A DNA stretch of 24,431 nt from a virus (taxonomy: Duplodnaviria; Heunggongvirae; Uroviricota; Caudoviricetes). Location: the IMG/VR virus record IMGVR_UViG_2663762939_000013; one strand, given 5' to 3'. Positions 5,839 through 7,767 of the stretch are shown in pieces (position 1 is the stretch's first letter; each line of letters begins with the position of its first letter). The notes beneath the pieces are model-generated. The model was not told where the DNA came from. It was given only the letters and a program-made list of their open reading frames with translations, and did not search any database. Position numbers and translations under genes: made by a program.

Positions 5839-6005
5839 TTAAAGTTCATGTGCCATCTGGTCTTTTTCGGCACAAGCTTCACTGCAATATTTTCTCGGTT
5901 CGTCTTTTGATAAAATCCCGTGCATGAAGTGAAGCATTCTTTCAATAGCTTTGCTTTCTTCAACGTCTTTTTTGCAAAGGTGGTAAGCACATTTTATTTT
6001 CTTAG
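5839..6005 (-). pseudogene. ydaE: 5'-truncated ydaE-like zinc-binding small protein; start codon lost at the IS5 junction
   Basis: Minus-strand frame ...KKIKCAYHLCKKDVEESKAIERMLHFMHGILSKDEPRKYCSEACAEKDQMAHEL-stop (stop at 5839-5841) runs open into the IS5 terminal repeat with no start codon; Cys/His spacing suggests zinc binding. Gene symbol is a positional guess (racC-ydaE order in K-12). Confidence 0.5.
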
Positions 6006-7200
6006 GGAAGGTGCGAATAAGTGGGGAAATTCTTCTCGGCTGACTCAGTCATTTCATTTCTTCATGTTTGAGCCGATTTTTTCTCCCGTAAATGCCTTGA
6101 ATCAGCCTATTTAGACCGTTTCTTCGCCATTTAAGGCGTTATCCCCAGTTTTTAGTGAGATCTCTCCCACTGACGTATCATTTGGTCCGCCCGAAACAGG
6201 TTGGCCAGCGTGAATAACATCGCCAGTTGGTTATCGTTTTTCAGCAACCCCTTGTATCTGGCTTTCACGAAGCCGAACTGTCGCTTGATGATGCGAAATG
6301 GGTGCTCCACCTTGGCCCGGATGCTGGCTTTCATGTATTCGATGTTGATGGCCGTTTTGTTCTTGCGTGGATGCTGTTTCAAGGTTCTTACCTTGCCGGG
6401 GCGCTCGGCGATCAGCCAGTCCACATCCACCTCGGCCAGCTCCTCGCGCTGTGGCGCCCCTTGGTAGCCGGCATCGGCTGAGACAAATTGCTCCTCTCCA
6501 TGCAGCAGATTACCCAGCTGATTGAGGTCATGCTCGTTGGCCGCGGTGGTGACTAGGCTGTGGGTCAGGCCACTCTTGGCATCGACACCAATGTGGGCCT
6601 TCATGCCAAAGTGCCACTGATTGCCTTTCTTGGTCTGATGCATCTCCGGATCGCGTTGCTGCTCTTTGTTCTTGGTCGAGCTGGGTGCCTCAATGATGGT
6701 GGCATCGACCAAGGTGCCTTGAGTCATCATGACGCCTGCTTCGGCCAGCCAGCGATTGATGGTCTTGAACAATTGGCGGGCCAGTTGATGCTGCTCCAGC
6801 AGGTGGCGGAAATTCATGATGGTGGTGCGGTCCGGCAAGGCGCTATCCAGGGATAACCGGGCAAACAGACGCATGGAGGCGATTTCGTACAGAGCATCTT
6901 CCATCGCGCCATCGCTCAGGTTGTACCAATGCTGCATGCAGTGAATGCGTAGCATGGTTTCCAGCGGATAAGGTCGCCGGCCATTACCAGCCTTGGGGTA
7001 AAACGGCTCGATGACTTCCACCATGTTTTGCCATGGCAGAATCTGCTCCATGCGGGACAAGAAAATCTCTTTTCTGGTCTGACGGCGCTTACTGCTGAAT
7101 TCACTGTCGGCGAAGGTAAGTTGATGACTCATGATGAACCCTGTTCCATGGCTCCAGATGACAAACATGATCTCATATCAGGGACTTGTTCGCACCTTCC
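6006..7200 (-). mobile_element. IS5 insertion sequence, complete, 1195 bp, no target-site duplication
   Basis: Terminal inverted repeats GGAAGGTGCGAATAAG (6006-6021) and CTTGTTCGCACCTTCC (7185-7200); encloses InsH transposase; 1195 bp as expected for IS5. Flanking 4-mers differ (TTAG left, ATAG right). Confidence 0.95.
6152..7132 (-). CDS. insH: IS5 transposase InsH, 326 aa
   Basis: [44 protein letters not shown]... recognised as IS5 InsH; in-frame upstream ATG at 7168 gives the 338-aa form. Confidence 0.95.
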
Positions 7201-7767
7201 ATAGGTATGTATGACTTGCATGGAAGTTTTATTCATTCGTTTTTTCTTGCCAGCTCCATGCTCACTGATAATGGTTTAGCTACGCAGGATTATGCAAGTT
7301 GGCCCACGCACACGATAGTGTTTTTGCTGTTGTCAAGTTTCTTTGGGGGATGTATAGGTTCAACTTGTGGTGGAATTAAGTCACTTCGATTTCTTATACT
7401 TTTCAAACAAAGCAAACACGAGATAAATCAGCTTTCTCATCCCAGAGCGTTGTTGAGTGTAAATGTAGGAGGGAAGATAGTTACAGATCGTGTAATGAGG
7501 TCTGTATGGAGTTTCTTTTTTCTTTATACTCTCTTCACGGTGTTTTTTATACTGGTGTTAAATGGTATGGGATATGATTTTCTTACATCATTTGCAACAG
7601 TGGCTGCATGTATTAATAATATGGGATTAGGTTTTGGGGCTACTGCATCGTCATTCGGAGTGCTTAATGACATTGCAAAATGTTTAATGTGCATAGCTAT
7701 GATTCTTGGTCGCCTTGAAATTTATCCTGTTATTATATTGTTTTCAGGTTTTTTTTGGCGCTCCTAA
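7201..7767 (+). pseudogene. trkG: 3' fragment of trkG (Trk K+ uptake protein, TrkH paralogue), C-terminal 188 codons only
   Basis: Frame opens exactly at the IS5 boundary; membrane-protein translation with the GGCIGSTCGGIK motif typical of TrkH/TrkG; visibly AT-rich; no N-terminal part present. Confidence 0.8.

Follow-up and report, generated by a model that had tools for sequence, protein, structure and literature searches.

The 24,431-nt stretch of viral DNA IMGVR_UViG_2663762939_000013 (hereafter the window; coordinates refer to its positions unless a locus is named) raises the question of how a single, complete copy of the insertion sequence (IS) IS5 came to join a start-less ydaE gene to the 3' end of trkG without carrying a target duplication. 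Comparison with 5,426 complete Escherichia coli genomes identified the window, over its full length, as a Rac-like prophage whose closest full-length relatives are 99.9% identical and about 13 kb longer. IS5 occupies the place of a central block that is present in these relatives and that, judged by sequence comparison, has been deleted.

The element in question (6006–7200, minus strand, 1195 bp) is complete, and both of its 16-bp imperfect terminal inverted repeats are intact. Its ends (GGAAGGTGCGAATAAG ... CTTGTTCGCACCTTCC) as well as its size and repeats fit IS5 (IS5 family, IS5 group). The transposase open reading frame (ORF; 6152–7168, minus strand), comprising 338 amino acids from the first ATG and 326 in annotations elsewhere, matched the NCBIfam model transpos_IS5_4 with E = 1.8e-109 (365 bits, cutoff 140), and its Pfam domains DUF772 and DDE_Tnp_1 correspond to a single DDE transposase. 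The feature that this copy does not display is the 4-bp duplication at a pyrimidine-T-A-purine (Py-T-A-Pu) site. As already read in the initial annotation, the left flank is TTAG (6002–6005) and the right flank is ATAG (7201–7204), which is unlike the left one. TTAG is a canonical IS5 target, while ATAG lies outside the listed IS5 targets. Such unmatched flanks mark a rearrangement after insertion and not non-membership in IS5; accepting this, TTAG would be the kept copy of the original target site and ATAG the endpoint of a deletion. As controls, the IS2 copy of the window (17721–19051) has kept a perfect 5-bp duplication (CAAGG), and three IS5 copies in related loci show perfect 4-bp duplications, namely CTAA in E. 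coli TUM1226, TTAG in ES9, and CAAG in CP164275.1. The idea that the IS5 of the window might be a traceable private variant was rejected, since many E. coli chromosomes and plasmids hold copies that are 100% identical to it and it thus represents a common allele.

For mapping of the breakpoints we used TUM1226 (locus L002), the closest full-length relative. Window positions 1–6005 aligned with L002 301–6305 (99.9% identity), positions 7201–17720 with 21643–32162 (100%), and positions 19052–23826 with 32158–36932 (99.96%). Hence, L002 6306–21642 (15,337 bp) is absent from the window, with IS5 in its place; for an ancestor of the WP7-S18-ESBL-09 type, i.e., without the internal IS5 of TUM1226, the loss amounts to 14,138 bp. 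The alignment against related Rac-like prophages, which the initial annotation had proposed, thereby mapped both deletion endpoints to the base, and given a relative that is 99.9–100% identical, chance is not an issue. Both arms show the gene content of a Rac-like prophage. The left one (1–6005, 99.9% identical to TUM1226) carries intR-xisR-rcbA-ralR-recT-recE-racC-ydaE, with ttcA adjoining intR in a 100% identical scaffold (L016), and its RecE is a full-length equivalog (1825 bits). On the right, the trkG-ynaK moron is followed by terminase, head, and tail genes, and positions 7201–23826 correspond to TUM1226 21643–36932 except for the IS2.

At the left junction, racC (5489–5764, minus strand; NCBIfam PRK09790, E = 8.6e-62; annotated as racC at the matching position of L002) is the last intact gene. 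It is followed by the ydaE remnant (5839–6005, minus strand; NCBIfam YdaE_coli, E = 1e-24), which has lost its start codon and is intact from codon 2. Compared to ydaE in TUM1226 (L002 6139–6309), only 4 nt are missing (TCAT on the plus strand), i.e., the ATG plus one base. At the right junction, the trkG remnant (7201–7767, plus strand; Pfam TrkH, profile positions 309–500 of 502) begins precisely with codon 298 of trkG, a gene of 485 codons, and comprises codons 298–485 and the stop (567 nt, 188 codons plus stop). The intact trkG of TUM1226 (L002 20752–22209) reads ...GGCAT/ATAGGTATG at the breakpoint, and the novel joint at 7200/7201 reads ...CACCTTCC/ATAGG, with IS5 complete to its terminal base. 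Both the start-less ydaE on the left and the C-terminal 188 codons of trkG on the right, as described at first sight of the sequence, proved exact when compared to the family profiles and the TUM1226 alignment.

The lost block starts with the first 4 nt of ydaE, followed by kilR, sieB, and ydaF, a divergently arranged helix-turn-helix (HTH) repressor and cro-like pair, and a YdaT-family gene. It further includes ydaU, ydaV, genes for DUF1627 and DUF977 proteins, in TUM1226 also the resident IS5, a KilA-N gene, hok, and a TehB-like gene, then genes for DUF1367, DUF1364, and DUF1133 proteins (NinB-like and Q-like), and ends with holin, lysozyme, Rz, and trkG codons 1–297. The initial annotation had deduced from the gene order of the K-12 Rac prophage that everything from kilR to the 5' part of trkG was missing. 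While the loss of this block was borne out, the ancestor was not K-12-like: the deletion removed 14.1–15.3 kb from a full-length Rac-like phage, in comparison to about 6.7 kb for the K-12 order, and KilA-N, hok, NinB/Q-like genes, holin, lysozyme, and Rz were likewise part of the lost block.

A prophage naturally devoid of the kilR–trkG block, into whose junction IS5 had inserted, would not require any deletion. Contiguous flanks in related genomes, named in the initial annotation as the observation that would speak against a deletion, were searched for with a query joining 300 bp of each flank without IS5. None of the 5,426 complete genomes carried them, although 2,141 contain at least one flank; in TUM1226 the flanks are separated by the defined interval 6306–21642. 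In addition, ydaE and trkG are both cut mid-gene, no target duplication is present, and genomes with a RecE identical to that of the window include ones with the full kilR–repressor–ydaT–replication block (L018, L019). A prophage that never had the block is thus effectively refuted and hardly credible any more.

Evidence on the direction of the deletion came from a sister genome. CP164275.1 (complete genome; loci L017 and L022) is 100% identical to window positions 1–7200, including the left arm, the TTAG junction, and IS5. Its right IS5 end, though, is joined to CTGGACAAG... (flank CTGG), corresponding to window position 22295 in the tape-measure gene, and its right joint thus lies 15 kb beyond that of the window, revealing a larger deletion on the same left anchor. 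One junction is therefore fixed and the other varies among the descendants. Since the left junction is constant while the right one varies, IS5 would have entered at ydaE, and the deletions would have run rightward from its transposase-proximal end; the polarity, which had been assumed in the initial annotation, was settled by this genome. CP164275.1 additionally harbors another copy of this IS5, which is identical in sequence but inverted, lies 3.7 kb downstream, and is flanked by a clean CAAG duplication; IS5 has therefore been recently mobile in this lineage.

The same genome bears on the question of whether IS5 was new in ydaE at all. Within the lost interval, TUM1226 has a resident IS5 that is oriented like that of the window (L002 12822–14016, CTAA duplication, between a hypothetical gene and KilA-N), which is also found in its near-identical relatives. 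Such a resident copy might have produced deletions on both sides, which from this type of ancestor would take only two events as well; alternatively, an insertion in trkG might have been followed by a leftward deletion. We regard both variants as quite improbable. The IS5 of the window and the resident copy differ at 3 of 1195 positions, compared to 8 of about 21,300 in the flanks, and the intact relative WP7-S18-ESBL-09 has no resident copy, so that the ancestor need not have held an internal IS5. Moreover, CP164275.1 keeps the left junction and changes the right one, and it is the left flank that is a canonical target (1% expected by chance), whereas the right flank is not.

Based on the published data on target choice, this last point can be put in numbers. 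IS5 duplicates Py-T-A-Pu, and the targets listed for it in ISfinder are CTAG (15), CTAA (3), TTAG (3), CAAG (1), CTTA (1), and CTTT (1) (PMC5493358). As Py-T-A-Pu tetranucleotides make up only 1.0% of the positions in the prophage of the relative, TTAG is unlikely to stand at the left joint unless it is the true insertion site. The IS5 copies with clean duplications (CTAA, TTAG, and CAAG) and the TTAG anchor are all on listed targets. The GC content around both joints is about 38%, compared to 47.6% for the window, and low-GC DNA of this sort is favored by IS5 (PMC5493358).

Taken together, we consider it probable that IS5 inserted at the TTAG of ydaE and that a transposase-mediated adjacent deletion into trkG followed, an order of events, and a role of the transposase in the cutting, that we infer from the anatomy of the locus. 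An active IS5 would have inserted at TTAG over ydaE codons 2–3 in a full-length Rac-like prophage and duplicated the TTAG, the plain ydaE::IS5 insertion reading CCTTCC-TTAGTCATCACC. The transposase-proximal IS5 end (7200) would then have entered an adjacent deletion, i.e., an intramolecular transposition into a site in trkG, by which the duplicate TTAG would have been discarded together with all DNA as far as trkG codon 297, leaving TTAG/IS5/ATAG as the product. In this one stroke, kilR, sieB, the repressor/cro-like pair, ydaT, the replication genes, the Nin/antiterminator-like genes, holin, lysozyme, and Rz would have gone. IS5 termini that are complete at both junctions fit a joint made by transposase, whereas random illegitimate recombination would not be expected to leave them.

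Comparable events are documented. In the long-term lines of Lenski, IS elements without duplications were described as anchors of adjacent deletions that grow stepwise, and IS903, which belongs to the IS5 family, commonly gives rise to adjacent deletions (PMC11708052). The deletions next to IS903 and, in the Lenski lines, IS150 share with the window an intact IS without duplication, of which one flank is the original site and the other a distant one (PMC11708052). In these cases, too, the IS serves as the anchor from which a deletion can extend in steps, a behavior that the window and CP164275.1 show together. In contrast to them, the case of the window is a natural one, lies in a prophage, has no earlier time point with the plain insertion, and concerns IS5 proper.

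Several points weigh against an insertion at ydaE followed by an adjacent deletion. Direct studies of the transposition chemistry are lacking for IS5 itself (PMC5493358). The plain-insertion intermediate TTAG-IS5-TTAG-kilR was not found in the complete E. coli genomes, IMG/VR, the species-representative genomes, or the JGI metagenomes; at the level of strings, the predicted intermediate IS5-TTAGTCAT... was absent from IMG/VR and the JGI metagenomes, and its counterpart on the trkG side, ...GGCATATAG-IS5, from IMG/VR. Thus, strains with an intact-flank IS5 at either endpoint, which the initial annotation had suggested looking for, did not appear in the collections searched; this counts for little, because the short-read assemblies of this lineage break at IS5. 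Furthermore, the deletion-side flanks of the lineage, ATAG in the window and CTGG in CP164275.1, are both off Py-T-A-Pu, though an intramolecular transposition that selects its target should tend to give a Py-T-A-Pu tetranucleotide as the new flank. Finally, since the IS5 copies of the lineage are identical, the sequence cannot separate an adjacent deletion from a recombination between two IS5 copies.

Such a recombination would start from two copies in the same orientation, one at the TTAG of ydaE and one at the ATAG of trkG (the trkG::IS5 insertion reading GGCATATAG-GGAAGGTG), between which RecA-dependent recombination would leave one hybrid IS5 with unmatched flanks. The end product would be exactly the same, recombination between IS copies often explains missing duplications (PMC11708052), IS5 is active in the lineage, and the AT-rich trkG seems to act as an IS magnet, having been taken elsewhere by IS5, IS2, IS1, and an IS3-family element. 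We nevertheless judge this course of events unlikely. It requires three events, and ATAG is not a listed IS5 target. A trkG::IS5 insertion at the ATAG site was absent from every collection searched, and the CTGG joint of CP164275.1 would require yet another hypothetical IS5 of the same orientation in the tape-measure gene.

The off-consensus flanks on the deletion side allow a further reading, in which IS5 was captured in a single step at a double-strand break during the 14–15 kb deletion, without normal target cleavage. Ngan et al. proposed such a capture for a member of the IS5 family in E. coli C (PMC11708052), and it would account for the missing duplication, for the lack of a detected intermediate, and for both deletion-side flanks of the lineage being off the consensus. 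The canonical TTAG on the left argues against it, as a target-independent event would land there in only about 1% of cases, and in CP164275.1 this IS5 and its left junction came through a second deletion unchanged, which is the pattern of stepwise growth. We therefore regard one-step capture as very unlikely. Along the lines of the proposal by Ngan et al., the flanks ATAG and CTGG, two cases only, are a hint that natural IS5-anchored deletions might not use normal target capture and might arise, e.g., by one-ended or abortive transposition or by break repair primed from the IS end, a generalization that we put forward as doubtful.

With respect to the distribution of the two junctions, the left one was absent from the 5,426 complete RefSeq E. 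coli genomes, and exact-pattern scans of IMG/VR and of the species-representative genomes did not detect it either. The right junction was absent from the 5,426 genomes and, by exact-pattern scan, from IMG/VR. The sole right-junction match in the complete genomes, ES9, was rejected, since its IS5 occupies another site in trkG and is flanked by a TTAG duplication. Among incomplete assemblies, scaffold KQ088931.1 (GCA_001032735.1) is 100% identical to window positions 1–11387, which makes it either the source of the window or a clone of that source, and the Logan contig SRR7500970_345 contains the identical IS5/ATAGGT joint, its span fitting the stretch from this IS5 to IS2. As a marker of the left junction, the fused 59-amino-acid ydaE product is recorded in 14 contigs with Met as the first residue, while the same fusion read with an Ile start gave no exact-protein record. 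Among the roughly 14 carriers of the left junction are GCA_001032735.1, GCA_043944855.1, GCA_014186555.1, GCA_002465815.1, and SRR7500970.

At the right junction, an in-frame TTG inside the IS5 terminal repeat opens an IS5/trkG fusion ORF of 193 codons (7186–7767, plus strand). Gene callers take the 186-amino-acid trkG ORF from the ATG at 7207 and not the TTG fusion, and both are putative products; the 193-amino-acid TTG-start product had no record in the exact-protein look-up. The suggestion that the codon-298 endpoint of trkG occurs in many genomes had to be rejected, as gene callers also report the 186-amino-acid product where trkG is frameshifted or where a deletion has its end at some other upstream point.

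How the loss of a repressor could be tolerated was addressed by comparison with K-12, where racR could not be deleted alone, whereas the whole prophage could be, and where a deletion from sieB to ydaU that kept kilR was obtained (PMC5700373). The initial annotation had reasoned that joint loss of racR, the toxic ydaS and ydaT, and kilR would be tolerated, although loss of racR alone is reported to be lethal in K-12. Its first part agrees with the K-12 genetics (PMC5700373) and with all independent deletions examined. The second part carries over only by analogy, because the lost pair is not RacR/YdaS: the 139-amino-acid HTH repressor of TUM1226 showed 36% identity to RacR over 33 amino acids, namely the HTH stretch, and its 84-amino-acid HTH cro-like protein matched YdaS over 18 residues (E = 0.028), and judged by these alignments the two are not orthologs of RacR and YdaS. 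A YdaT-family gene is present in the TUM1226 block. Thus, the deletion may have been tolerated, or even favored, since the repressor and the toxic or lytic genes left together. The joint loss of repressor, cro-like gene, and ydaT is equally expected if only viable deletions get sampled, and this pattern was already reported in outline in 2017. The repressor/cro-like region of TUM1226 (L002 7925–8792) and that of K-12 (L015 10120–11178) are different alleles, with more than 99% identical DNA on both sides, which looks like a typical lambdoid immunity swap.

To place the deletion among other Rac-like prophages, we searched the 5,426 complete genomes with a query in which the recT-recE arm was fused to the trkG 3'/ynaK/terminase arm and mapped a subset of the matches. 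About 26 genomes have the recT/recE arm at most 4.5 kb from the 3' half of trkG, and the central block was removed by at least seven other independent junction types, involving IS1, IS1 plus partial ISEc52, IS3, or no IS at all. Thus, recE is followed by IS1 and a 5'-truncated trkG in ES8, and by IS1 plus a partial ISEc52 and a 5'-truncated lysozyme gene in LHM10-1 and CP52E, while in JNQH497 a truncated recE, IS1A, and a 5'-truncated lysozyme gene follow each other. In BE2-5 and the PE15 group a truncated recE is joined to a truncated Rz, and in SRR23956615 a truncated recT to a truncated trkG, in both cases without any IS. MSB1_1D has ydaF, IS3, and a truncated Rz1, with kilR and sieB retained. 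All of these resemble the window in lacking the block that extends from the recET arm to the lysis/trkG region and in keeping int-xis-recT at the left and trkG 3'/ynaK at the right, and repressor, cro-like gene, and ydaT are jointly absent in every mapped case. They differ in that each has its own breakpoints and agents; only the lineage of the window shows IS5 together with ydaE codon 2 and trkG codon 298.

The K-12 Rac prophage itself shares with the window the integration beside ttcA, the left arm intR-xisR-rcbA-ralR-recT-recE-racC-ydaE (99.3% identical between K-12 and TUM1226), and trkG-ynaK on the right. It is also defective through internal deletions and also carries an IS5, in this case in lomR. 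In contrast to the window, it retains kilR, sieB, racR, ydaS, ydaT, ydaU, ydaV, and an intact trkG, while its Nin/lysis region and almost every head and tail gene are gone. The window is thus the inverse of K-12 Rac, with control, replication, and lysis genes lost and structural genes kept.

Altogether, the first interpretation of this locus held with minor corrections, which concern the type of ancestor, the immunity pair, and the lack of an intact-flank strain. The locus represents a clean, base-resolved natural case of an IS disarming a prophage, in which repressor, killing, replication, and lysis genes would have been lost in one event and the recET arm and structural module were left behind. 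The window and CP164275.1 form a two-step nested series on one IS5 end, and across Rac-like prophages this block has repeatedly disappeared in a variety of ways. An IS-anchored adjacent deletion is a textbook route of prophage decay, and the case, which also accords with the published genetics of K-12 Rac, illustrates known biology without changing it.

Two further insertions were identified in the window. A complete IS2 (17721–19051, minus strand, 1331 bp, with TnpA and TnpB ORFs) is flanked by the CAAGG duplication given above, sits in a small head/tail gene (homolog of L002 31860–32243), and is absent from TUM1226. A third IS (23827–24431), which runs off the window end, interrupts the tape-measure gene and is annotated elsewhere as an IS3-family transposase; its terminal sequence TGAACCGCCCCGGG... 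presumably resembles IS629/IS1203. This insertion is also found in CP164275.1. The prophage has thus been struck by three different IS elements, and its structural module is already broken by IS2 and the IS3-family element. Elsewhere, insertions in trkG (38% GC) comprise IS5 with a TTAG duplication (ES9), IS2 (L011), an IS3-family element (L010), and IS1A (USML2), so that trkG looks like a hot region for insertions; those in L010 and L011 lie at nearly the same base.

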